NCBI GenBank assembly: GCA_030393635.1
Contig: GCA_030393635.1_4352.1
DNA length: 44,340 bases
Direction: 5' to 3' (one strand)
Source of the DNA: a phage
The first letter of the stretch is position 1. The number at the start of each line of letters is the position of its first letter. Shown in pieces: positions 3,000-44,107 of the stretch. The position numbers were made by a program, and so were the translations under genes. A model generated the notes under the pieces. That model was not told where the DNA came from. It saw only the letters and a program-made list of their open reading frames with translations, and ran no database searches.

Positions 3000-3022
3000 G
3001 AAAGGGGCGTTAAGCCCCTTCA
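3000..3022. terminator. Hairpin between convergent genes
   Basis: GGGGC-gttaa-GCCCC stem-loop with A-run upstream and TT downstream. Confidence 0.5.
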
Positions 3023-3225
3023 CCAAACGCCAGCCACTTGGCGTCTACTTGCAGCACTTCTGCCAGTCTAAACAGCGTCGCAGGGCGGACGTCCTGAGTT
3101 ACTCCGAGCGCAAGCTGGTTAATTGCGCCCTGGGAAACGCCGGCCAGAACAGCCAGACGGCGCTGGGAGATTCCGAGTTCTTTACGGCGTTGTTCTACAC
3201 GGATGCCTAGTTCAGATGGTTGCAT
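3010..3225 (-). CDS. XRE-family (Cro/CI-type) HTH transcriptional regulator
   Basis: 71-aa ORF; ISQRRLAVLAGVSQGAINQL is a typical XRE HTH; AAGGAG RBS 7 nt upstream of the ATG on the minus strand. Confidence 0.8.
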   Translation of the reverse strand: MQPSELGIRVEQRRKELGISQRRLAVLAGVSQGAINQLALGVTQDVRPATLFRLAEVLQVDAKWLAFGEGA

Positions 3226-3256: not shown

Positions 3257-3318
3257 ATAGTACCATATTAATTATTTTAGAAAAGCCCATTGACATCATG
3301 AATAGTTCGCTATTATAG
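3257..3318. promoter_or_regulatory. Divergent promoter/operator region between the XRE regulator and the small ORF at 3352
   Basis: Minus strand: TACTAT -10 overlapping palindrome AATAG-TACC-ATATT (3256-3269). Plus strand: TTGACA (3290-3295), palindrome AATAG-TTCG-CTATT (3301-3314), -10-like TATAGT. Confidence 0.55.
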
Positions 3319-3351
3319 TGAGCCTATACTAAACGAGAGGAGAGAAGCAAA

Positions 3352-4469: not shown

Positions 4470-5707
4470 TTTTAAAAGAACGCGGTGGCAATAACGATGT
4501 TCACGCCCTACTGTCACCGTCAGGCGCTAAAAAGTGGCTAAGCTGCGCCGCATCACTGGCCTGTGAAAAAGATATTCCTAACACGTCCGGCAAAGCTGCC
4601 GTATTAGGCACAGCTATGCACACCATAGCTGAGATGCACCTTAACCAGTACATCAAAGGTACTGCGTTGCCGTTAGAGCGTGAAGTCGGCGCTTACGTGC
4701 TGGATGAGGGCAAGGGCCAGATTAAGGCGCTAATCAGCCCAATTAAAGACGCGGTACTCATTACGGCGGACATGATTGAGCAGGTGCGCAAGTACACCGA
4801 CTACTGCAAAGCGATTATAGACGTGGCGACTTACGCCAAGCTGGAGATGCGCGTCAATCTTACTGAGGTATTGCATCCGGGGTATGAAGGCGTTGAGACG
4901 TTCGGAACCGCTGACCTTGTTGCCGTTCAGGAACTGGCAAACACCGACGGGCACATGCTCATTATTGGCGACCTGAAAACTGGACGGCATCGTGTCGAAG
5001 CGAAAGAAAACAAGCAGCTTATGCTTTATGCTCTCGGTGTTTATCGCCGACTCAAGAGACGCTATAACATAACAGTTGTTCGTCTGGTTATATTCCAGCC
5101 GTATGCTGGCGGTGCGTCGGAGTGGGACATCTCGGTTGAAGGTCTGGAACTGTTCGCTAAGTTCGCACGGAAACGTGCACTGTTAGCCCTTGATGCATAT
5201 TTCCGGGGCAAGAAGAACCTGAAAGCGTCGGACTTCAGGCCGTCGGTCGATGGTTGTCAGTGGTGTCGGTTCTCTGAGCAATGCGCCGTGCGTACAAAAA
5301 CCGTTAACGCGATACTGGCGGAAGAACTGGAGGGCGGCTTTGCACTCGAACTGACGCCTGAGCAACTCGTAGCTGAGTACGAGAAGTTGCCGCTGTTGCG
5401 ACAGCACATCGACAAGGTTGAAAAAGCTATGGCTGCCGCGCTGCATTCCGGTAAGAAAGTGCCTGGGTACAAACTCGTTGAGGGTAAGATGGGCAACCGT
5501 GCGTGGAAAGATTCCGATGCGGTATTCGAGAAGTACGGCGCTATGTTGCAAAAGGTAGTTCTCATGACGCCGACCGAAGCGGTTAAAGTGATACCGGAAG
5601 AAGAACTGAAAAACTTCATTACCCGTAAGCCGAGCGCACCATGTGTCGCAACGGCAGACGACAAACGTCCTGAGTGGAATCAGGTAACAGAGGAGGATTT
5701 AGAATAA
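4466..5707 (+). CDS. PD-(D/E)XK exonuclease, Cas4/RecB-like with putative Fe-S cysteines
   Basis: 413-aa ORF; N-terminal Cys (WLSCAASLAC) plus C-terminal C-x2-C-x5-C (GCQWCRFSEQC) as in Cas4-type nucleases; C-terminal TEEDLE. Confidence 0.65.
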   Translation: MILKERGGNNDVHALLSPSGAKKWLSCAASLACEKDIPNTSGKAAVLGTAMHTIAEMHLNQYIKGTALPLEREVGAYVLDEGKGQIKALISPIKDAVLITADMIEQVRKYTDYCKAIIDVATYAKLEMRVNLTEVLHPGYEGVETFGTADLVAVQELANTDGHMLIIGDLKTGRHRVEAKENKQLMLYALGVYRRLKRRYNITVVRLVIFQPYAGGASEWDISVEGLELFAKFARKRALLALDAYFRGKKNLKASDFRPSVDGCQWCRFSEQCAVRTKTVNAILAEELEGGFALELTPEQLVAEYEKLPLLRQHIDKVEKAMAAALHSGKKVPGYKLVEGKMGNRAWKDSDAVFEKYGAMLQKVVLMTPTEAVKVIPEEELKNFITRKPSAPCVATADDKRPEWNQVTEEDLE

Positions 5708-5711
5708 AGTG

Positions 5712-5740
5712 TTGACACCTGAATAGTTAGCTATTATATT
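5712..5740 (+). promoter_or_regulatory. Sigma70-like promoter with embedded palindrome, upstream of the SSB gene
   Basis: TTGACA (5712-5717), 17-bp spacer containing AATAG-TTAG-CTATT (5722-5735), TATATT (5735-5740). Confidence 0.6.
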
Positions 5741-5798
5741 TCTAACCACTGGCCGGGCAGTTCCCGGAGTAAACGAAACTTAAAAGCGAGAAATCAAG

Positions 5799-6425
5799 AT
5801 GGGACTGAAACTGAATCTGCGTAAAGTAAACACTGCATGGGTTAACGTATTCGAACGCGAAAAAGACCGCGAAAACGATGATGGCTCAATCACTAAAGGC
5901 CAGTACAGCGCAACGATTATCCTGCCGCCGGACCATGCTCAAATCGACGCGCTCTACGACACTGTTTACGCTGTAGTTGAGGGAGCGTTAGGCGCAGCCG
6001 CCGCCGAGAAATGGATGAAGTCCAACTACGGCGAAGGTAAGCACATGGATAAATGCGCGATTAAAGACATTGCCGAGCGCGACAATCCGTTTGAAGACTT
6101 CCCGGAAGGCTTCTACTTCAAAGCGAAAGCACAGAAACAGCCGCTGATTGTAACCTCTAAAAAAGGCGAGGCTCAGGTAGAGCAGGACTTCAATGTAGAC
6201 GGCGAACAGATTGAAGGTGAACAGGTTTACAGCGGCTGTGTTGCCAACGTAAGCGTTGAAATCTGGTTCAGCCAGAAATACAAAGTCCTCGGTGTTAACC
6301 TGCTGGCAATTAAATATGTTGGCGAGGGTAAAGCGTTCGGTGGTTCTAAAGTCGCCGCAAGTGTCGACGACCTCGAAGACGACGAAGATGATGAAGCACC
6401 GCGCCGCGAACGTCGTCGCCGTTAA
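5799..6425 (+). CDS. Single-stranded DNA-binding protein (T7 gp2.5-like)
   Basis: 208-aa ORF with acidic DDLEDDEDDE segment near the C-terminus, resembling the gp2.5 tail, followed by a basic RRERRRR terminus. Confidence 0.55.
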   Translation: MGLKLNLRKVNTAWVNVFEREKDRENDDGSITKGQYSATIILPPDHAQIDALYDTVYAVVEGALGAAAAEKWMKSNYGEGKHMDKCAIKDIAERDNPFEDFPEGFYFKAKAQKQPLIVTSKKGEAQVEQDFNVDGEQIEGEQVYSGCVANVSVEIWFSQKYKVLGVNLLAIKYVGEGKAFGGSKVAASVDDLEDDEDDEAPRRERRRR

Positions 6426-9194: not shown

Positions 9195-9475
9195 CTAAAG
9201 AGGGCCGCATACAGAAATACGCAAAAGACCGATTCGAGGCCATCGGCGGCCTCGTTCGTAAGTTATCGTACGAGGGGCGCTCCGGCGCTCCCGACCTGCT
9301 GGTAATTCTCCCCGGCAGCATAGTCTGGTTCGTCGAGGTTAAGAAAGACGAAAACACGAAGCCAGACCCGCACCAGCTACGGGAACATGAGCGGATGCGC
9401 AAACGTGGCGCGAATGTTTTTGTCGTCGGTTCGTTTAAACAGGTTGACGACCTAATAGCGAACTATTATAGTTAG
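9191..9475 (+). CDS. VRR-NUC domain nuclease (PD-(D/E)XK)
   Basis: ORF 9176..9475 with ATG at 9191; GAPDLLVI...VEVKK matches the VRR-NUC catalytic core. Confidence 0.65.
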   Translation: MTKEGRIQKYAKDRFEAIGGLVRKLSYEGRSGAPDLLVILPGSIVWFVEVKKDENTKPDPHQLREHERMRKRGANVFVVGSFKQVDDLIANYYS

Positions 9476-9505
9476 TCCTACACCAACAATATAAGGAATT
9501 GAGAA

Positions 9506-21596: not shown

Positions 21597-21626
21597 TTGC
21601 GCGCCCCAATATAATAGGGTACTATT
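21597..21626 (+). promoter_or_regulatory. Promoter with embedded palindromic operator, upstream of the Imm-like gene
   Basis: TTGCGC, 17-bp spacer, TACTAT; palindrome AATAG-GGTA-CTATT (21613-21626). Confidence 0.6.
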
Positions 21627-21655
21627 CACTTACACCGACAACGAAGGGGTTTAAA

Positions 21656-21847
21656 ATGTCAAGTTTACCGGTTTCCCTAATTCTATTTGCGCTGCTCGCT
21701 TATTTCGCACCTTTCCTGGTTGCGTATTTCCGCAACCATAAAGCGAAGTTGGCGATATTCATGGCCAATCTGTTTCTTGGTTGGATTCTGCTGCCGTGGG
21801 TCTTTATTTTAATCTGGGCATGCAACTCGAATGTTAACGAGAAGTGA
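21656..21847 (+). CDS. Superinfection-immunity-like small membrane protein
   Basis: 63-aa ORF with two transmembrane segments and NLFLGWILLPW, reminiscent of Imm-type proteins. Confidence 0.5.
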   Translation: MSSLPVSLILFALLAYFAPFLVAYFRNHKAKLAIFMANLFLGWILLPWVFILIWACNSNVNEK

Positions 21848-21885
21848 GCTAGTATAGGACAAATCCTAAACACGAGGAAGTAAGC

Positions 21886-23016
21886 ATGGCCCGGAAGAAA
21901 ATAACCGACGAACAATTACAGGAAGAATTGAACGCCGGAGTTAAAACTATCGATATAGCCCGTAAATATGGCATCTCAGACCGCGTTATTCGTATCCGTA
22001 AAGCGAAGCTGGCTAAGAAAGGCGTAGGCCACGGGCGCGACGTTAGCCACCTTGTCCCGGACGGCTACAAGATTAAAGGAACGTCGTCACTTGTAGACGA
22101 GTTCGGCAACACTAAGTTGCAATGGGTTAAGACCGATACTGACGCCGAACGTCAGGTCGAGTTAATGAAAGCCGTAATTGAGGGCATGAAGTCAGAGATT
22201 ACGCCCGTTGCTCCTGTTAAAGCCACCCGTTCCAAACGCGACGATAAACTACTCAATCTTTACACCGTGTCTGACTTTCATCTCGGTATGCTGGCCTGGG
22301 CCGACGAGAGCGGCGACGACTGGGATATGAAAATCGCGGAGGGCCTGTTCTCCCGATGGTTCGACGAGGCGTTTCAGAAAGCGCCGGACGCTGGGACCGG
22401 AGTTATTAACCTGCTAGGCGACTTCGCGCACTTCGATAGTCTGGTTGCCGTTACACCTGCAAGCGGTCACGCTCTTGACGCCGACACCCGTTATCAGAAA
22501 CTTGTCCGCTACATGATTCGTATGGTCCGCCGTGTTGTCGATATGGCGCTGGTTAAGCATAAAACTGTTCGCTTGCTTATTGTGCAAGGGAACCACGACG
22601 AAAGCGGAATGATTTGGTTAGCTGAGATGTTCAGTACGCTGTACGACAATGAGCCTCGTGTGTTCGTCGATACGTCGCCGGATGTTTACAAGATGGTGCA
22701 ACACGGCAAAACGACGCTGTTCTTTCATCACGGCCATAAGGCGCGATTCGACGCTATCGAACCGGTTATGATTGCCAAGTTCCGCAAAGCGTTCGGCGAG
22801 AGTGTTTACAGCTACGCCCACGTAGGCCACCTGCACCACCAGAAGGTTGTAGAAAGCCGTAACATGATTGTTGAGCAACACCGCACCTTAGCGGCCAAAG
22901 ACGCCTACGCCTCCCGTGGCGGATGGATGTCGGGCCGTAGTGCAAATGTAATTACTTATAGCGCCGAATACGGCGAGGTCGCGCGTTTAACTATTTCACC
23001 GGAGATGCTGGGATGA
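21886..23016 (+). CDS. Calcineurin-like metallophosphoesterase with N-terminal HTH
   Basis: 376-aa ORF; metal-binding GNHDE, FHHGHKA and HVGHLHH motifs; N-terminal IDIARKYGISDRVIRIRK HTH-like segment. Confidence 0.65.
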   Translation: MARKKITDEQLQEELNAGVKTIDIARKYGISDRVIRIRKAKLAKKGVGHGRDVSHLVPDGYKIKGTSSLVDEFGNTKLQWVKTDTDAERQVELMKAVIEGMKSEITPVAPVKATRSKRDDKLLNLYTVSDFHLGMLAWADESGDDWDMKIAEGLFSRWFDEAFQKAPDAGTGVINLLGDFAHFDSLVAVTPASGHALDADTRYQKLVRYMIRMVRRVVDMALVKHKTVRLLIVQGNHDESGMIWLAEMFSTLYDNEPRVFVDTSPDVYKMVQHGKTTLFFHHGHKARFDAIEPVMIAKFRKAFGESVYSYAHVGHLHHQKVVESRNMIVEQHRTLAAKDAYASRGGWMSGRSANVITYSAEYGEVARLTISPEMLG

Positions 23017-23498
23017 AAGATATTGTAATTTTCGATTTAGACGGGACATTAGCAGATGGTACACATCGTTTACACCTGCTGCCGAAAGATAACTACGGTG
23101 AAACATGGGCTTGGAAGCCTTTTAACATGGCGTGCAAAGATGATGAGCCAATTAGAGATAATATCGAACTATGTAACGCCCTTAATCGGCGATACGCCGT
23201 TATTATTTTAACCGGTCGCAGTGATGATGCAGAAAAAGAAACCAGAATGTGGCTGCAGCGCCACCGCGTCGAATTTTATAAGCTAATCATGCGCAGCAAA
23301 CACGACAACAGAAAAGACATCGTAATTAAAGAAGAGGTGTTACGTGCTATCGGGCTGGAAAGAATATTGTGCGCATTCGACGACTCTCCGGCGGTAATAA
23401 AGCATTTCCGCGGACTCGGTATAACCACTCACGCGGTTACTGAATACGACTGTAACGGGAATTCTACACACTTAAAATCACACGGGAGCGATAAATAA
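23013..23498 (+). CDS. HAD-superfamily phosphatase / nucleotidase
   Basis: 161-aa ORF; N-terminal FDLDGTL (DxDGT) catalytic motif. Confidence 0.65.
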   Translation: MKDIVIFDLDGTLADGTHRLHLLPKDNYGETWAWKPFNMACKDDEPIRDNIELCNALNRRYAVIILTGRSDDAEKETRMWLQRHRVEFYKLIMRSKHDNRKDIVIKEEVLRAIGLERILCAFDDSPAVIKHFRGLGITTHAVTEYDCNGNSTHLKSHGSDK

Positions 23499-24052
23499 TG
23501 GCTAAGGTAATTATTCTTAATGGCCCGGCGGGTTGTGGGAAAGACACACTTGCTATGGCGCTGGTAGAAATGGGCTTTGCGAAGGGAACTACCAGTTTCA
23601 AGAATCCAATGTTCAATATCGCTCTGGCGGCGTTAGGCCCGGATGCTTACCACGAGTTTCTCGACGGCTACGACGACCGGGCGCGGAAAGAAAAGCCAGA
23701 AGGTTTCCTTAATGGTTTGTCGCGACGTCAGTTCATGATTGCTATCTCTGAACAGTTCATTAAACCGGTTCTAGGCAGCGATTATTTCGGTAAGTATCTT
23801 GCTGAAAACTTGCCCGACGGCGATGACGTTTTTGTAGTGTCGGATGGCGGGTTCGCCAGCGAAGTAGCCCCTATCGTCGCCGCAGGTCATGATGTAAGAA
23901 TCGTTCGCTTGCACCGAGACGGCTATACGTTTGACGGTGATAGCCGCGGTTACCTGTACGATGTTGGCGGTGATGAAGATTATGATGTATACATCATACC
24001 TGGTGACGTTAAATCTAACGTTATAGACATTGCTTTAAAATTAGGTTTGTAA
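23498..24052 (+). CDS. Deoxynucleoside monophosphate kinase (T4 gp1-like)
   Basis: 184-aa ORF; P-loop GPAGCGKDT and YDVYIIPGD segment resembling T4 dNMP kinase. Confidence 0.6.
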   Translation: MAKVIILNGPAGCGKDTLAMALVEMGFAKGTTSFKNPMFNIALAALGPDAYHEFLDGYDDRARKEKPEGFLNGLSRRQFMIAISEQFIKPVLGSDYFGKYLAENLPDGDDVFVVSDGGFASEVAPIVAAGHDVRIVRLHRDGYTFDGDSRGYLYDVGGDEDYDVYIIPGDVKSNVIDIALKLGL

Positions 24053-29664: not shown

Positions 29665-30366
29665 TTATTTCCTCAGGGCTTTAAGTTGCCGTTCAAATTC
29701 GGCAGGGTTCGATTTATACAGAGCTAAACGCTCCGCTTCACTCATGTCTTTAAACGCTGGTGCGGCCCCGCCGCCTTTGCCACCGGAAGCCCCGCCGCCG
29801 GAAGCTGCATTTGCTTTAATCAAATGCGAAAACGCTTTGTGTTCGCGCAGGTATTTGCGAAACTGTTCCGGGTCAGTCGTGATTACGTTGCCATCTGCAC
29901 CGACAAACTTAGTAACCACGTCATCACCTTCGAACTCAGTCTTAACGAACGGAGCAAGAATGTCTACTGCTTCCGGGGTAATAAAGTCACCCGCGAAAGA
30001 GCCTAACACTGCTTTACGTTCGCTGCCGAGGATGCGCTCTGCCATTTTGGAGATGCGACCATCTTTCTCGGCTAACACCGGGTCATACTGGCTACGAATC
30101 GTCTTTTCGAACTCGTCCATCTTACCAGCGGCTTTTAACGCCTCCTGGTGTGCGCGCTGCCGTTCTTCTTCGGCCTCTTTTGCTTTGCGAGCGGCTTCTT
30201 TCTTCTCCGCCAGCAATGCTTCCTGATTGGCCTTAAGACCAGCGACTTCTTTCTCAATCAGCGCCTGAACTTCTTCAGCGGTGAACATTTTTGGCGCGTC
30301 ACCGCCACCAGCTTTATCTTCTGCTCCAGCTTCTTCCTGGAACGGATAACGTAAAAAACGATTCAT
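29665..30366 (-). CDS. Head scaffolding protein
   Basis: ORF 29665..30420 with ATG at 30366; K/E/A-rich coiled-coil, directly upstream of the capsid gene. Confidence 0.6.
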   Translation of the reverse strand: MNRFLRYPFQEEAGAEDKAGGGDAPKMFTAEEVQALIEKEVAGLKANQEALLAEKKEAARKAKEAEEERQRAHQEALKAAGKMDEFEKTIRSQYDPVLAEKDGRISKMAERILGSERKAVLGSFAGDFITPEAVDILAPFVKTEFEGDDVVTKFVGADGNVITTDPEQFRKYLREHKAFSHLIKANAASGGGASGGKGGGAAPAFKDMSEAERLALYKSNPAEFERQLKALRK

Positions 30367-30448
30367 AGTCAGTATGTCCCCTGGACGTTGGAACCCGGGC
30401 CACCCGGATTTACATGTCAAGAATAAATTATTCCAACATGCAAGGCAA

Positions 30449-30712
30449 CTATTCCAGAATATTCCTCACGTAATCCTGCAACATGAACACTTTCAGCCTC
30501 AGCTGCCGTACGCATTCGGCGTTCTTAACATCGATAGCTAAATCTTCGTCAGCGTCGCTACTTGGCAGCGCCAGTTTGCACGGCGGCTGCATCATCGTCG
30601 TATCCGGGGATGGAATTGGCGTTGGCGACGGCGCGGGACTTGAGCAGGACGCGAGCATCGTCGAAAGTGCACACGCTGCGGCCAGGCGTTTTAATGTACT
30701 TAACGACTTCAC
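30449..30712 (-). CDS. Outer-membrane spanin (Rz1-like lipoprotein)
   Basis: Signal peptide with lipobox LASC and Pro-rich SSPAPSPTPIPSPD; starts inside the i-spanin gene in another frame and extends past its end. Confidence 0.55.
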   Translation of the reverse strand: MKSLSTLKRLAAACALSTMLASCSSPAPSPTPIPSPDTTMMQPPCKLALPSSDADEDLAIDVKNAECVRQLRLKVFMLQDYVRNILE

Positions 30713-30944
30713 GGGTAATCACCTCTGATTTCGTCTTGCCTTCGTTATCAGCGGCGGCGGCCTTTGATTCGTCCTGCTGCTGCCGTTGTGTTTTCTTCGC
30801 TAACTCAACCTGTGCTTTCTGCTGTTGCTGCGAAACGAGATTCGCCCGGCCTTCGGTCCAGCCGATGCGGTATTGATAGTATCCGTGTGCGTATAACAGG
30901 ATGATGAAACATGCTCCCGCTACGACAGTTGCTTTAAGATTCAT
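30558..30944 (-). CDS. Inner-membrane spanin (Rz-like)
   Basis: 128-aa ORF; N-terminal TM helix, Q/K/E-rich coiled-coil, C-terminal periplasmic domain. Confidence 0.6.
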   Translation of the reverse strand: MNLKATVVAGACFIILLYAHGYYQYRIGWTEGRANLVSQQQQKAQVELAKKTQRQQQDESKAAAADNEGKTKSEVITREVVKYIKTPGRSVCTFDDARVLLKSRAVANANSIPGYDDDAAAVQTGAAK

Positions 30945-31194
30945 GTTTCTCCTTTCTCGATAAGTAAAGCCCCGCCATAAAGCGGGGCGCTAGTCCTTAT
31001 CATTTAAACATAGAAACGGCGTAATCTCAGTAAACCAGTTACTTTTTACACAAGCAATAGAGTACGGCCCTTCCGAACGCGTCAGCGTAACTACACTCAG
31101 GACTTACGTCCAGCTCCGTTACCTGCCCGCGCCGCGGTCGCTTGTTCATACTTCACAAGCTCAGGTGGAGCTTAGCACATTTTTAGTGAAAAGT

Positions 31195-31210
31195 CAACTA
31201 TTCGAATAGT
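31195..31210. promoter_or_regulatory. Perfect 16-bp palindrome AACTATTCGAATAGTT
   Basis: Read directly; contains the CTATT/AATAG half-sites in everted order, about 55 bp upstream of the -35 of the promoter at 31264. Confidence 0.5.
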
Positions 31211-31297
31211 TTATTCCAACATTTACAATTGAGTGGAATAACCGGAATAGGTGAATAAATAGTTTGCGCACCCCAACATAATAGGGTACTATTCACT
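31209..31297 (+). repeat. Copy A of an ~89-bp direct repeat carrying a promoter/operator
   Basis: Near-identical to 31599..31687; TTATTCCA...TGGAATAA inverted repeat, TTGCGC-17-TACTAT promoter, palindrome AATAG-GGTA-CTATT (31280-31293). Confidence 0.7.
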
Positions 31298-31321
31298 CAC
31301 ACCAACAAGAGGCGAGAAGAA

Positions 31322-31573
31322 ATGATTACGAAACCAGCAAAACATCGTGTACGGGACCTTGGTTCTTTTCTTAAAAAAGAGTATGAACAGGCCGAATTAC
31401 GCGGCGACATTTCGGCGTATATTGAGCTTCAGCAGATGCAACTGGACGCGCAAGAAGACGGGGATATGTCTCTATCCGCCGCGGTCGGCAGAAGTATGCG
31501 CCAGATTCGTGAAAAGTATGACCGAAACGTCTGGAATAGAGAGATTAACTTAACCCAAGAGACAGGGTATTAA
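31322..31573 (+). CDS. Hypothetical protein (83 aa)
   Basis: ORF with GAGGCGAGAAG RBS, flanked by its own promoter copy and terminator. Confidence 0.55.
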   Translation: MITKPAKHRVRDLGSFLKKEYEQAELRGDISAYIELQQMQLDAQEDGDMSLSAAVGRSMRQIREKYDRNVWNREINLTQETGY

Positions 31574-31604
31574 AACTGAGGCCCCTTTCGGGGCCTCAGT
31601 TTAT
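31574..31604 (+). terminator. Intrinsic terminator
   Basis: CTGAGGCCCC-tttc-GGGGCCTCAG stem followed by TTTATT. Confidence 0.7.
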
Positions 31605-31687
31605 TCCAACATTTACAATTCGGTGGAATAACTGGAATACTTAAATAAATAGTTTGCAAACACCAATATAATAGGGCACTATTCACT
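31599..31687 (+). repeat. Copy B of the ~89-bp direct repeat carrying a promoter/operator
   Basis: TTGCAA-17-CACTAT promoter with palindrome AATAG-GGCA-CTATT (31670-31683), upstream of the PAPS-reductase-like gene. Confidence 0.7.
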
Positions 31688-31709
31688 TAACTTGAACAGG
31701 AGGCATTAT

Positions 31710-32522
31710 ATGAAACATGTAATCAGTTTTTCAGGCGGCAGAACATCAGCGTACACAACCCTTGAAGTGCTTAAACTCTACCCCGATGCTGAGGTCATCT
31801 ATATGGATACTGGGGCGGAGCACCCCAAGACATACGAGTTCATCCGCAATTTTGCTAAGCACTTTAATATTGCGGTGACGTGCCTGCGGGTGGTCCCTAA
31901 CCCAGAAATGCGTAAGGCCAGTACCTATGAAGTCCTTAGTGTAGATGAAATAGGTCCTGACCTGGAGCCGTGGCGCAGAATGCTGCGTAAGTATGGGCAC
32001 CCATACGTCGGCGGCGCTTTCTGCACAGACCGGATGAAGACGGTGCCGTTCACCAAATACTGCGACGAGAAATACGGCAAAGGAAAATACGACAGATGGC
32101 TGGGGGTCCGCTGTGACGAACCTAAGCGCCTGGTAAACAGGAAAGATGGGTTCCACTATCTTGCAGACATAAGTGATTTTGAGAAACAGGACATAATCGA
32201 GTGGTGGGCGAAACAGGAATTTGACCTTGGTATAGAAGAACACTTAGGTAACTGTGTTTTTTGTATCAAAAAGAGCCTGCAAAAAGTAGCACTGGCGGCT
32301 AAGGATGAACCTCAGTTAGCCGAACAATTTTGGGGAATGATTCAGGAAGAAGACATAAAGCGGGATAAGGTTATGTATAGGTCGAACAGAACCCTCGGCG
32401 AGGTCATCGCACTGTTTCGGGATGAGCGCCGTGAGGAGCTTGCATCTCGTATACGCTCAATGCGGCAGTACGACACGGGGTCATGCAGTGAAAGCTGTGA
32501 AGCGTTTTCCGTTTCTGAATAA
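31710..32522 (+). CDS. PAPS reductase-like (PP-loop ATP-pyrophosphatase family) protein
   Basis: ORF 31692..32522 with ATG at 31710 after AGGAGG; N-terminal SFSGGRTS PP-loop motif; C-terminal cysteines CVFC and CSESC. Confidence 0.65.
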   Translation: MKHVISFSGGRTSAYTTLEVLKLYPDAEVIYMDTGAEHPKTYEFIRNFAKHFNIAVTCLRVVPNPEMRKASTYEVLSVDEIGPDLEPWRRMLRKYGHPYVGGAFCTDRMKTVPFTKYCDEKYGKGKYDRWLGVRCDEPKRLVNRKDGFHYLADISDFEKQDIIEWWAKQEFDLGIEEHLGNCVFCIKKSLQKVALAAKDEPQLAEQFWGMIQEEDIKRDKVMYRSNRTLGEVIALFRDERREELASRIRSMRQYDTGSCSESCEAFSVSE

Positions 32523-32523
32523 A

Positions 32524-32550
32524 ACTAAGGCCCCGTAATGGGGCCTTTTA
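32524..32550. terminator. Bidirectional intrinsic terminator
   Basis: AGGCCCC-gtaat-GGGGCCT stem with T-run. Confidence 0.7.
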
Positions 32551-33012
32551 TCATTCTGGCTTAGCGACCTTCGCCGCTTTGCTGACAGCCTCTACACCAT
32601 CAGCATCAGTAACTTTGACGAAGTATTCGCCTGCCGCGTTAACCGTCAGAGACAAAGCCTCTTCTGGGGCGTTGACCACTTCCTTCCCGTCTTTGTACCA
32701 TGTCAGCGCATATGGTGCTTTACCCGCTTTAACTTCTACGGTGATAGTTGCGCTGCCGCCCGCCAGTTCCTGGTCCTGCGGTTGCACAGAGAAATACACA
32801 TCGCCCGCGTCCGCCAGATACGGAATCTCATAAAGCATGCTCGCCGCAGGTAGTGCAATACCGGTTTTATCTGCAAACGGCATATCGTCTACCGGGGTAC
32901 CTAGTACACTTTCGTCTTCGATGAATACCACGTTCTCACCAGAACCGGACACTCGGGCGTACTGGACTACGCGACGCGATGGTACATCAGTTACTTTGAA
33001 AAAGCCCATCAT
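32551..33012 (-). CDS. Ig-like domain protein
   Basis: 153-aa ORF; APYALTWYKDGKEV...GEYFVKVTDADG Ig-like pattern similar to 27891..28241. Confidence 0.5.
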   Translation of the reverse strand: MMGFFKVTDVPSRRVVQYARVSGSGENVVFIEDESVLGTPVDDMPFADKTGIALPAASMLYEIPYLADAGDVYFSVQPQDQELAGGSATITVEVKAGKAPYALTWYKDGKEVVNAPEEALSLTVNAAGEYFVKVTDADGVEAVSKAAKVAKPE

Positions 33013-34088
33013 TATTCCCCTTTCAGATAATCAGCAACACGTTTATCGAGTTCCGCCATCTGCTTAAGCGTGAGCGGATTCCCGAAACCATCTACAGATA
33101 TTACGCGAAACTCTTCCGGCGATATACCGCTGTTGCGGAAAATCTTACCGCGAACAGGGCCTAGTGCTTCATCCTGAAACCATGCCGGTTGTTGTTTCAG
33201 GAACTCGTAATAGGTGGTGTCCGCACTTACCTGAGTACCGCCTTCGGCGCCCTTAGCCGCTCGTTTCGCTCCTTTATCGAGGAAGTCGAACTCCGAACTT
33301 ATTACAGGTGCCGTGCACGACCGACAGTTCGGATGGGCCGGAGGCATCGGCCCTTTACCAATTTCCCACGTCATTCCGTCTCTGGCTCTGCAAATCGTAC
33401 TGGTACGGCTGTCCAGCGTTGACACCCATTCGTACTTCTCGATGATGTCGTCGTTCTGACGGTACGTTTCGTTACGTGCTTCGTTGGATACGTGGGACAG
33501 CGCGGTGCGGATTACCGTAGCGGCGTTGCGTTCCGAGATGTCAGCCAGCCCGCCAGCGCCTACGACATTCTTAACAATCTGCCGTGTGGTTTGGCCTTGT
33601 ACAAAGCCCATCTTAACGCCGGTTACCAGGCGCGATACTTCTGTTTCGCCCCAGCCTGACATCAGCTTGGTGAAATCGACAGGCTTGTCGCCCAACGATA
33701 AGGGTTGAAACTCGGCAGCGGCCCACACCTGCTCTGCGGTAGGCGTAACAAATTCCACGTCAACGTTGGCGGTCAGCGTTTTTACGTTCCACTCTGCCTC
33801 ATACGCCGCCAGCTCCTTGAGGTCTTCTGTCAGCTTTGTTTGCCAGTCGCCTGTAAGCCCGGTTAATGCTTCTTCAATGTCGCGTAACAGTTTATTCAGG
33901 CGCGCTGTGCTGCGACCGTCGTCACCGAACAGCAAAACCTGCCATTTGATTTCGTCCCGCATTTCCTGAAGAAACGGCGCAAGGTCTTTCACTTCACCGG
34001 ATGCGGTGCGTTGCAGCCATATCTGGTGGCTGATTAGGGATGTAAGTAAGCTCATAGATAAACCCTGTGGTGCTAAAGTTAATAGCAT
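33012..34088 (-). CDS. Head morphogenesis / minor head protein
   Basis: 358-aa ORF immediately downstream of the portal gene. Confidence 0.55.
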   Translation of the reverse strand: MLLTLAPQGLSMSLLTSLISHQIWLQRTASGEVKDLAPFLQEMRDEIKWQVLLFGDDGRSTARLNKLLRDIEEALTGLTGDWQTKLTEDLKELAAYEAEWNVKTLTANVDVEFVTPTAEQVWAAAEFQPLSLGDKPVDFTKLMSGWGETEVSRLVTGVKMGFVQGQTTRQIVKNVVGAGGLADISERNAATVIRTALSHVSNEARNETYRQNDDIIEKYEWVSTLDSRTSTICRARDGMTWEIGKGPMPPAHPNCRSCTAPVISSEFDFLDKGAKRAAKGAEGGTQVSADTTYYEFLKQQPAWFQDEALGPVRGKIFRNSGISPEEFRVISVDGFGNPLTLKQMAELDKRVADYLKGE

Positions 34089-34124
34089 ACTATAAGAAAG
34101 CCCCTTTCGGGGCTATATGCGAAC

Positions 34125-35606
34125 TTACTGCTGAGCGGTGTCTTGTTGCCGCGCCGACTGCGGAATCTCCCCCGCTACCTGAGTGACAGCACCTAACGGC
34201 AGCGGTGCATCCTCGATTGCGTTCTGAATATCCTCGTCAGTCCAGTCGGTTACACCCGCCTTGCGCAATGCGGCGTAGTAGGCAGTAGCTGGTAACAGGC
34301 CTGCGTTAATGTCCGCCATCCACTGAGCGCGGTCCTGAGCGGTCATCGGTTGCAGGAAGAACTCCATGTTCAGTTTGAATTCAATCTCTGTGCCTTCACG
34401 CAACCCTAGCATTGCAGCTACCCAGCGCAGCGCATCGGTATACGCCATGCTTACGTTACGCGCGATTGTCGCCATAACGGACGTATCAGCGCCGCGTTGC
34501 AGGCGAGCCGATTCCGCGGTGATTTGCTGCGTGGGGGTGATAAGCTGCGCGCCAATCTGGATGGCCTGATTCTCTTTATCCAGCATGTTCTGCTTAGCGA
34601 GGTTGTTCTCTCCTGCCTGAACCAGAAACGCATTGCCGCCGTAACCAATGTTGTGGCCTGAACGCGACCCCATACGCACGCCGTGGGGGTTGGCTTCTTT
34701 CCATTGTTCCATGCTCATATTCTCGCCCGGGGCGATGAACAGAGTGGGCTGGCCTACAACGAAACTGGACTCCTCATTGTCTGCACTGTTGCGGAAATGC
34801 CCAATATTAAGCTCGGCCAACGGCAGCAAAGGTGCATCATCAATGGTTGCGTCATTGTTGCTTGCCCCGATGAACGTGAACGGGATTTTACCGCGCAACT
34901 GTTCGCCAAGTTCCGGGAAGATTTCGATTACTTCATCCTGCGCACCGCCTTCAGCATCGAAGCGGTAAATGCGCTGGCGGTAGCGACCGTCAAGCAGGTC
35001 AAGGACTCGGTATTGCTCACCGAACTTGGTTTCGAACTCTGTGCCAGGTTCTGAGTATTCCCATACCTCACGCAGCACGACCATAGTCACGCAGTTCACT
35101 GAACCGATGCGGGTCAGTCGCCAGTTGATGATGTTCTCTGCGGTGTAGAATGCGATGACCGGGTTTAATAATCCCGCGTTCTGTTCGGCTGCCGTTGCCG
35201 CGGCTGTCTCCGGCGCGTCCACCAGCAACCCGCCACGACCCACCGAGTCAATCTCCATTAACGTATCCTGCGCGTGCTGCCACAGCCCGACACCAGAACC
35301 GTCAGCGTTGCGTAACAGGTATTCCAGTTCAGGTGGGATAATCTGCTCGGGGTCTTTGCGCATCACTGACCCCACCATCCCCGCCAGGGTACGTTTAGTG
35401 AAGTTATAGCAGATAGCGCCGTTCTCGTATTCTTCCTGGCGCTGTGCCGCGTAGGTCGGGTCAGGCTCGTTCTTCCCGACATTGCGCAGATAACGAATAA
35501 GGTCACCCTCCAGTGCGTGGCGCACCTTCTGCCATTTATCGAAGTGATGCAGCCATTCCTGGTGTTTTGTCTTAACACCCTGATTCTGACCGTTCATAGT
35601 TAACAT
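34125..35606 (-). CDS. Portal protein
   Basis: 493-aa ORF immediately downstream of the large terminase gene. Confidence 0.75.
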   Translation of the reverse strand: MLTMNGQNQGVKTKHQEWLHHFDKWQKVRHALEGDLIRYLRNVGKNEPDPTYAAQRQEEYENGAICYNFTKRTLAGMVGSVMRKDPEQIIPPELEYLLRNADGSGVGLWQHAQDTLMEIDSVGRGGLLVDAPETAAATAAEQNAGLLNPVIAFYTAENIINWRLTRIGSVNCVTMVVLREVWEYSEPGTEFETKFGEQYRVLDLLDGRYRQRIYRFDAEGGAQDEVIEIFPELGEQLRGKIPFTFIGASNNDATIDDAPLLPLAELNIGHFRNSADNEESSFVVGQPTLFIAPGENMSMEQWKEANPHGVRMGSRSGHNIGYGGNAFLVQAGENNLAKQNMLDKENQAIQIGAQLITPTQQITAESARLQRGADTSVMATIARNVSMAYTDALRWVAAMLGLREGTEIEFKLNMEFFLQPMTAQDRAQWMADINAGLLPATAYYAALRKAGVTDWTDEDIQNAIEDAPLPLGAVTQVAGEIPQSARQQDTAQQ

Positions 35607-44078: not shown

Positions 44079-44107
44079 ATAGTACCCTATTATGTTGGGG
44101 CGTGCAA
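44079..44107 (-). promoter_or_regulatory. Promoter with embedded palindromic operator (minus strand)
   Basis: Minus strand: TTGCAC, 17-bp spacer, TACTAT; palindrome AATAG-TACC-CTATT at 44078-44091. Confidence 0.6.

Follow-up and report, generated by a model that had tools for sequence, protein, structure and literature searches.

Among known systems, the locus analysed here comes closest to the morons of lambdoid phages and the PeSL cassettes of T4-like phages. Morons, reportedly described by Juhala et al. and by Hendrix et al. in 2000, share several traits with it: one accessory gene, equipped with a promoter and terminator of its own, sits between conserved late-operon genes, occurs in some genomes while missing from close relatives, and represents cargo from other phages. 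In T4-like phages, PeSL cassettes consist of a repeated sigma-70-type early promoter and a stem-loop terminator that flank ORFans in hyperplastic regions (PMC2839356, PMC4122927); breakpoints of insertion, deletion and replacement fall at these motifs, and inter-motif recombination shuffles the genes (Arbiol et al. 2010, PMC2839356; Comeau et al. 2014, PMC4122927). For the phages fBC-Eco01 (PMC9825357) and Golestan (PMC7203180), PHIRE-predicted phage promoters contain the same ~20-nt motif as the present locus, in about seven copies per genome. The repeated motif is already known as a predicted promoter, although both papers attribute it to an RNA polymerase of the phage itself, and the operator, cassette structure and slots are absent from them (PMC9825357, PMC7203180). 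As far as the searched literature shows, there is no description of how slots and cassettes are organised, of the operator regulon or of a stacked arrangement.

The window (the whole 44,340-nt stretch of DNA that was analysed) is a Kagunavirus (Guernseyvirinae) genome with a gene order matching those of the phages phiWAO78-1 and Schulenburg; around the slot (query 30900-31750), it is ~95% identical to NRG857CP3 and phiWAO78-1. Its late genes follow the minus-strand order portal, head-morphogenesis, Hoc-like, spanins, scaffold, capsid, and both cargo genes run antisense to this series, in the interval that separates the Hoc-like stop from the i-spanin start. The repeated ~90-bp unit at this place serves two small accessory-gene cassettes as their common control region, and comparison with 53 slot loci (48 from IMG/VR and five from GenBank) makes it look as if the cassettes were stacked by recombination between related Kagunavirus phages in a hypervariable late-region slot. 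The features of the locus are the following:

30427-30465, minus strand: GGAATA boxes GGAATAT, TGGAATAG and TGGAATAAT, upstream of the scaffold gene
30969-30988, minus strand: intrinsic terminator, 25 nt upstream of the i-spanin start
31072-31138, minus strand: 67-nt irregular RNA hairpin, conserved, with compensatory changes
31169-31197, minus strand: candidate promoter P_L (TTGACT, 17-bp spacer, TGcTAAGCT)
31196-31211, no strand assigned: 16-bp perfect palindrome AACTATTCGAATAGTT, between divergent promoters
31208-31297, plus strand: repeat copy A, with a P1/inverted-repeat part (31208-31253) and the cassette promoter P2-A (31254-31297)
31222-31251, plus strand: putative promoter P1-A (TTTACA, 18-bp spacer, AATAGG), within TTATTCCA (31211-31218) and TGGAATAA (31234-31241)
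31264-31293, plus strand: putative promoter P2-A (-35 TTGCGC at 31264-31269, 17-bp spacer, -10 TACTAT at 31287-31292)
31322-31573, plus strand: orf83 (cargo 1), an 83-aa conserved three-helix protein
31573-31602, plus strand: cassette 1 intrinsic terminator (13-bp perfect stem, dG -25.6 kcal/mol, z -7.4)
31598-31607, plus strand: 10-nt junction microhomology AGTTTATTCC, where the terminator-flank end in orf83-only phages equals the P1-unit start
31598-31687, plus strand: repeat copy B, with a P1/inverted-repeat part (31598-31643) and the cassette promoter P2-B (31644-31687)
31612-31641, plus strand: putative promoter P1-B (TTTACA, 18-bp spacer, TGgAATACT, extended -10 intact)
31654-31683, plus strand: putative promoter P2-B (-35 TTGCAA, 17-bp spacer, -10 CACTAT), with the operator-like AATAGGGCACTATT at 31670-31683
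31710-32522, plus strand: NinC-like gene of the PAPS-reductase family (cargo 2), 270 aa, PF01507
32527-32547, no strand assigned: bidirectional terminator common to cassette 2 and the convergent Hoc-like gene

Both cassettes resemble morons in that each pairs a promoter with a factor-independent terminator, as judged by sequence (P2-A with 31573-31602, P2-B with 32527-32547), and in that insertion between conserved genes varies among relatives, about 20 of the 53 loci being empty. Unlike lambdoid morons, they are carried by a virulent siphovirus, Guernseyvirinae being virulent and Schulenburg's deposited annotation having neither an integrase nor a repressor module, so that there is no prophage expression to benefit a lysogen; they occupy two or three fixed slots with shared flanks; and their promoters bear the phage's own putative operator, with two units stacked. 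The cassettes would therefore work like morons, but in a lytic context. The likeness to PeSL lies in the repeated sigma-70-like promoter and the stable intergenic stem-loop, and in breakpoints of gene gain, loss and replacement that coincide with these motifs. In contrast to PeSL, with its ~50 copies per genome and a stem-loop combined with the promoter, promoter and terminator form opposite cassette ends here, and the cassettes are antisense inside a late operon; limited to two or three slots, and differing from PeSL in both sequence and phage family, they do not belong to the T4-like PeSL family.

The direct repeat comprises 90 nt, with copies A and B identical at 79 of 90 positions (88%) and spaced 390 bp apart; for its 31-nt and for its 44-nt sub-pattern, the window has exactly two occurrences, versus 0.00 expected. 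Each copy has a plus-strand gene downstream that closes in a strong terminator, and each contains the inverted repeat TTATTCCA-N15-TGGAATAA (31211-31241 and 31601-31631), which encloses the -35 hexamer TTTACA. The arms of the cassette 1 terminator lie at 31573-31585 and 31590-31602, and copy B starts 5 nt inside the 3′ arm. An earlier note on this DNA had described two near-identical copies with an inverted repeat in each, an 83-aa ORF closing in a strong terminator, and a second copy starting inside that terminator ahead of a PAPS-reductase-like gene, all of which holds at the coordinates given here. The unit is composite: the 5′ 46 nt (the inverted repeat around TTTACA, then TGGAATAAY) are the slot's own, and the 3′ 44 nt belong to the mobile cassette.

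Promoter activity of P1 and P2 is predicted from their sequence. P2 represents a sigma-70-type family, TTGCRC-N17-TACTAT with the spacer CCCCAAYATAATAGGG, of which the window has five further copies beyond the repeat, near 21597 (plus strand) and near 44107, 42716, 3262 and 3307 (all minus strand). The P2 hexamers are moderate matches (3-4 of 6 each) and were unflagged in a consensus scan; the true P2 start site could differ, as there is another -10-like hexamer, (C/T)ATAAT, 10 nt ahead of TACTAT. P1-B was the sole promoter of the unit flagged in that scan. P1-A is probably inactive, its -10 being degenerate (AATAGG) and the TG missing. Empty slots retain P1 as TGnAATAAT or TGnAATAGT in 20 of 20 cases, both in Kagunavirus and in Jerseyvirus, in the form TTTACA-N18-TGgAATAAT (or AATAGT) with a terminator within ~20 nt (20/20). 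Filled slots have the P1 -10 broken at its fourth or fifth base, with the final T kept in just 2 of 33 copies. On the minus strand, a promoter-like CTGAAA-N18-TATAAT (10/12 matches) at 31705-31734 lies antisense over the NinC start codon. A plus-strand P2-like promoter, TAGCAC-N17-AACTAT (31173-31201), was set aside because conservation there fits the minus-strand extended -10 better, and a DnaA-box reading was considered and rejected.

The 14-bp palindrome AATAG-N4-CTATT occurs at 13 sites in the window (allowing one mismatch), versus 0.98 expected, and sits at no fewer than 10 promoters of the genome, including the control region of a cro-like gene. Two layouts are seen: the palindrome either lies over the -10 of P2 (in P2-A as the operator-like AATAGGGTACTATT, 31280-31293), or falls in the spacer of TTGACA-type promoters, as in the canonical TTGACA-N17-TATAGT/TATATT promoters at 3301, 5722 and 9454. 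The second class can be written TTGACA/TTGACG-N4-AATAGNNNNCTATT-ATAGT/ATATT (3290-3325, 5705-5745 and 9440-9480, plus strand), and its members lie upstream of replication-side operons. The cro-like gene (3010-3225, minus strand) encodes a 71-aa protein matching HTH_3, and two copies of the palindrome occupy the 125-bp divergent region between this gene and the divergent operon. As in the Cro/CI control of lambda, 434 and P22, a small HTH_3 protein is thus found beside a divergent region with two 14-bp palindromes, and the same palindrome overlaps the core promoter elsewhere, including other early promoters, and recurs at the regulator's own divergent promoter. Unlike those systems, the phage is virulent, no CI partner was found, and at least 10 operator-like sites are predicted over the genome. 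This arrangement suggests that AATAG-N4-CTATT is an operator, with the cro-like protein as its most likely ligand. The left part of AACTATTCGAATAGTT is a one-mismatch operator-like site (31189-31202) overlapping the -35 of the minus-strand promoter. This 16-bp palindrome, which the earlier note had placed at 31195-31210, is real but 1 nt further on; it is retained in 37 of 40 Kagunavirus loci, and in Jerseyvirus the sequence is not palindromic. Perfect 16-bp palindromes are not rare as such (two in the window versus 0.68 expected), the only other one being at 23982-23997.

Across the relatives, slot 1 separates the i-spanin gene from the Hoc-like gene. About 20 of the 53 loci have it empty, with a length of 320-346 bp, and the filled slots of other surveyed loci have exactly one plus-strand cargo of 57-242 aa; among surveyed loci, two cargos in slot 1 were found in the window only. 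Similar variation is seen in slot 2, which is flanked by the head-morphogenesis and portal genes and has a P2 promoter but no inverted repeat. Over both slots, at least 24 cargo families were counted, three of which occur in both. The cargos that could be identified comprise, among others, an N6/N4 DNA methyltransferase, a KilA-N protein, a lipoprotein, a clamp-like fragment and NinC; many further cargos are ORFans. One Vut/YhhQ-type cargo, possibly a 7-deazaguanine-type (queuosine-precursor) transporter, is co-located with a 244-aa ORF without a Pfam match that may, as a conjecture, be DpdA-like. Unrelated cargos have in common the promoter, the 5′ UTR down to the Shine-Dalgarno sequence, and a terminator starting at or inside the stop codon. 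When slot-1 and slot-2 copies of the same cargo are compared, the mobile unit is seen to start with AAATAAATAG, ahead of the -35, and to reach as far as the terminator's 3′ arm; every cassette is bounded by P2 and a conserved GGCCCC-loop-GGGGCC hairpin, which in the window abuts the next promoter unit. Slot 2 of the window (34081-34125) is empty, with an operator-like remnant AATAGCATACTATA and a terminator hairpin remaining, and sister phages carry NinC and a 113-aa ORF in slot 2.

Other variable points were seen in the same region. Seven loci (L002, L012, L015, L021, L030, L039 and L088) have 0.7-1.3 kb extra between the Hoc-like and head-morphogenesis genes or within the latter, where L088 has an intein; Schulenburg has an HNH endonuclease gene at the Hoc-like/head-morphogenesis point. 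The tail gene region of the window contains a third counter-oriented block (21597-24052, plus strand) with a P2-type promoter (-35 at 21597-21602) and ORFs of 63, 376, 161 and 184 aa, the 376-aa ORF being phosphoesterase-like in Schulenburg. For one surveyed locus, Salmonella phage S4lw (L003, OQ660438.1), the deposited product names look one gene out of register, with the PAPS-reductase ORF named portal protein and the portal named terminase.

No family was found for orf83 in Pfam or PHROGs, and a Foldseek search of its AlphaFold model (pLDDT 87, three helices) against the PDB returned nothing at E <= 0.001. An exact look-up of the window's NinC protein gave no record. Outside Guernseyvirinae, homologues of NinC and orf83 reside in ordinary operons without cassette flanks; therefore, these genes appear to have been captured into the cassette format.

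How the two units came together is best judged from phages that carry them singly. In a sister lineage, orf83 is alone in slot 1 and NinC is in slot 2, a layout found in at least three (L085-L087) among the four distinct places listed from 24 contigs; in a second type (L089, L091), NinC is alone in slot 1, behind a normal palindrome-P1-P2 region. Past the terminator, orf83-only phages have CAGTTTATTCC and next the Hoc-like stop codon, and the P1 unit begins with TAGTTTATTCC; the window junction is exactly the AGTTTATTCC common to the CAGTTTATTCC flank and the TAGTTTATTCC start, a 10-nt match that could be a coincidence. Two direct repeats in the same orientation, 390 bp apart, would most simply be read from the raw sequence as a promoter region duplicated in place, with a gene later inserted or diverged between the copies, and the earlier note had spoken of modular duplication of a regulated cassette. 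Its modular part stands, in that promoter-gene-terminator cassettes and an over-represented palindromic site are present. Local duplication, however, is unlikely: A and B agree with each other at fewer positions (79/90) than either does with the orthologous single units of other phages (84-85/90), both single-cargo configurations exist, and identity to orf83-only relatives drops at the junction, from 95-98% left of 31597 to 84-93% right of it. The flank past the window's second terminator is also of the TTTTATCATTC type, where orf83-only phages have CAGTTTATTC. The identity drop is no more than supportive, since mosaicism is common in these genomes and identity to relatives also dips at 28.8-29.4 kb. 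No close (>95%) right-hand parent was found: at the protein level, the NinC-only phages reach 86-94% identity. Both variants circulate in similar samples, so that an assembler might have collapsed two co-occurring forms into a tandem, but such an artefact is extremely unlikely because the same junction occurs in three independent metagenome assemblies from different projects, one of them identical to the window at 6247 of 6252 positions, and a full-length 44.8-kb contig with the tandem is virtually identical to the window. The tandem was located only via an orf83 protein look-up: when IMG/VR and JGI metagenome contigs were scanned for the exact pattern of a terminator with P1 after it, nothing matched, and a junction BLAST against 50,697 phage records gave no colinear match. 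Together, the lower similarity of A to B than to orthologues, the existence of both parents and the identity drop make it look as if the two copies were joined by recombination between two genomes with alternative cargos. The longest perfect stretch common to A and B is 23 nt; therefore, pop-out of the 390-bp unit is predicted.

Other readings concern what the unit is and how cassettes move. Sharp cargo boundaries, and a core site AGTTTATTC that stands at the P1 start and again just past the terminator in empty and orf83-type slots, would suit integron-like, site-specific recombination. Against this, slot-2 cassettes have no AGTTTATTC, the conserved flanks (~60 nt on the 5′ side and ~30 nt on the 3′ side) suffice for homologous exchange, and no integrase or recombinase is present in Schulenburg's deposited annotation. 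Integrons are marked by IntI, attI/attC sites and promoterless cassettes; since no integrase is annotated in Schulenburg and the cassettes carry their own promoter, the integron reading was rejected, and movement at AGTTTATTC is regarded as very improbable. The conserved 3′ half of the unit has been ascribed, in PHIRE-based work on Kagunavirus, to a phage-encoded RNA polymerase (PMC9825357): fBC-Eco01 has seven copies of tgAATAGTa-ccTATTat-T so ascribed (PMC9825357), a motif that is the P2 core in reverse complement. However, the cognate RNA polymerase gene that marks T7/SP6-type systems was found neither in Schulenburg's deposited annotation nor among those window ORFs examined (not all ORFs were systematically domain-scanned), the motif has TTG 17 bp from a TAnnAT hexamer, and the same palindrome is found within the canonical TTGACA-N17-TATAGT/TATATT promoters. 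This reading was considered and rejected as having hardly any likelihood. A role of TTATTCCA-N15-TGGAATAA as an RNA stem-loop (attenuator or stabiliser) in place of a DNA operator draws on its retention in both genera and on a compensatory change in the top pair (A-T to T-A or G-C). The fold is weak, though (-7.0 kcal/mol, z -1.3 for copy A; -10.3 kcal/mol, z -2.7 for copy B), pairs are broken in several loci, and the loop contains the conserved TTTACA hexamer; owing to the weak fold, this improbable reading was rejected.

The preferred explanation, in which a slot receives cassettes, the tandem arose by unequal crossover and the promoters are operator-controlled, is considered probable as a whole. 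The slot is a hypervariable plus-strand site, predicted to be expressed, between the minus-strand late genes for i-spanin and the Hoc-like decoration protein, with a resident candidate minus-strand promoter, the palindrome, P1 within TTATTCCA-N15-TGGAATAA, and a bidirectional terminator. Each cassette consists of an AT-rich upstream element, P2, a conserved 5′ UTR with ribosome-binding site, the cargo ORF and the GGCCCC/GGGGCC terminator, and conserved flanks would allow homologous exchange of cargo between co-infecting phages and between the two slots. Parents of the types [P1-P2-orf83-terminator] and [P1-P2-NinC-terminator] may have been joined in tandem by unequal crossover in AGTTTATTCC, which lies after the orf83 terminator and at the P1-unit start, yielding the 390-bp-spaced repeat. 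Host sigma-70 RNA polymerase would start at P2 and at P1-B; the operator over the -10, most likely bound by the 71-aa cro-like HTH protein, would allow early expression followed by shut-off, and the terminators would insulate the antisense late operon.

The region upstream of copy A contains further signals. The sole ORF of the gap 30945-31320 is a 36-aa minus-strand frame (31039-31149) overlapping the structured RNA, which the annotations of phiWAO78-1 and Schulenburg list as encoding a hypothetical protein. It is absent or unrecovered in eight Kagunavirus loci, frameshifted in one more and without a Jerseyvirus counterpart; it is probably not a gene and was rejected as one, being not conserved in Kagunavirus and absent from Jerseyvirus. 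For this reason the gap is effectively ORF-free, as the earlier note had stated, and the hairpin noted there is the intrinsic terminator at 30969-30988; the three TATTCC repeats that had also been reported were found at 30429, 30450 and 30460. The corresponding GGAATA boxes are conserved in Kagunavirus and Jerseyvirus, and of 16 near-matches to TGGAATAAT genome-wide, seven fall between 30427 and 31641.

Read on the minus strand, the gap contains P_L (31197-31169), a small hairpin, the 67-nt hairpin and the intrinsic terminator (30988-30969), followed by the spanin, scaffold and capsid genes. The extended -10 of P_L is conserved in Kagunavirus and Jerseyvirus, and P_L was unflagged in the consensus scan. 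Sixteen sequence variants of the 67-nt hairpin, each folded alone, gave the same shape at about -30 kcal/mol, and a covariance model found one copy per genome in 52 related loci and the window. In its alignment, 94.3% of cells pair and compensatory double changes occur in 10 of 23 pairs, numbers that are somewhat inflated because the alignment was fitted to the covariance model; shuffled controls gave 5.7 +/- 1.2 (0/500 reached 10) and slid controls <=3. Two conserved G-U pairs place the RNA on the minus strand. An Rfam scan of 30300-32700 at E <= 1 returned terminator-like noise only and no family for this hairpin, for which an antitermination leader, an RNase III site and a stable small RNA are candidate roles. 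The anatomy alone agrees with a put/Q-type arrangement, as in HK022 put or lambda PR'-6S-tR', of promoter, structured leader and terminator upstream of late genes, and no Q homologue is present in Schulenburg's deposited annotation; that the promoter, two-hairpin leader RNA and terminator form a put- or Q-like antitermination device or an RNase III processing signal is a rather doubtful proposal. If it were true, late transcription could, by antitermination, read past the several bidirectional terminators imposed by the antisense cassettes, and the cassette slot and late control hub would be one co-evolved module.

The stacked cassettes illustrate well a type of phage gene shuffling that is already known. 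Within the late operon of a small virulent coliphage, a fixed socket for gene expression is maintained, made up of a resident control region, a terminator, and a promoter and 5′ UTR that are portable; through this socket the phage would swap accessory genes with relatives and occasionally stack them. The recurring annotation of the motif to a phage RNA polymerase would thereby be corrected, and a testable regulon is offered for the cro-like protein. Kagunaviruses are in development as chassis for synthetic biology and therapy and are very sensitive to restriction-modification systems (PMC11990801); for these reasons, the slots may serve as natural, pre-insulated payload landing pads and are likely sites of anti-defence variation.
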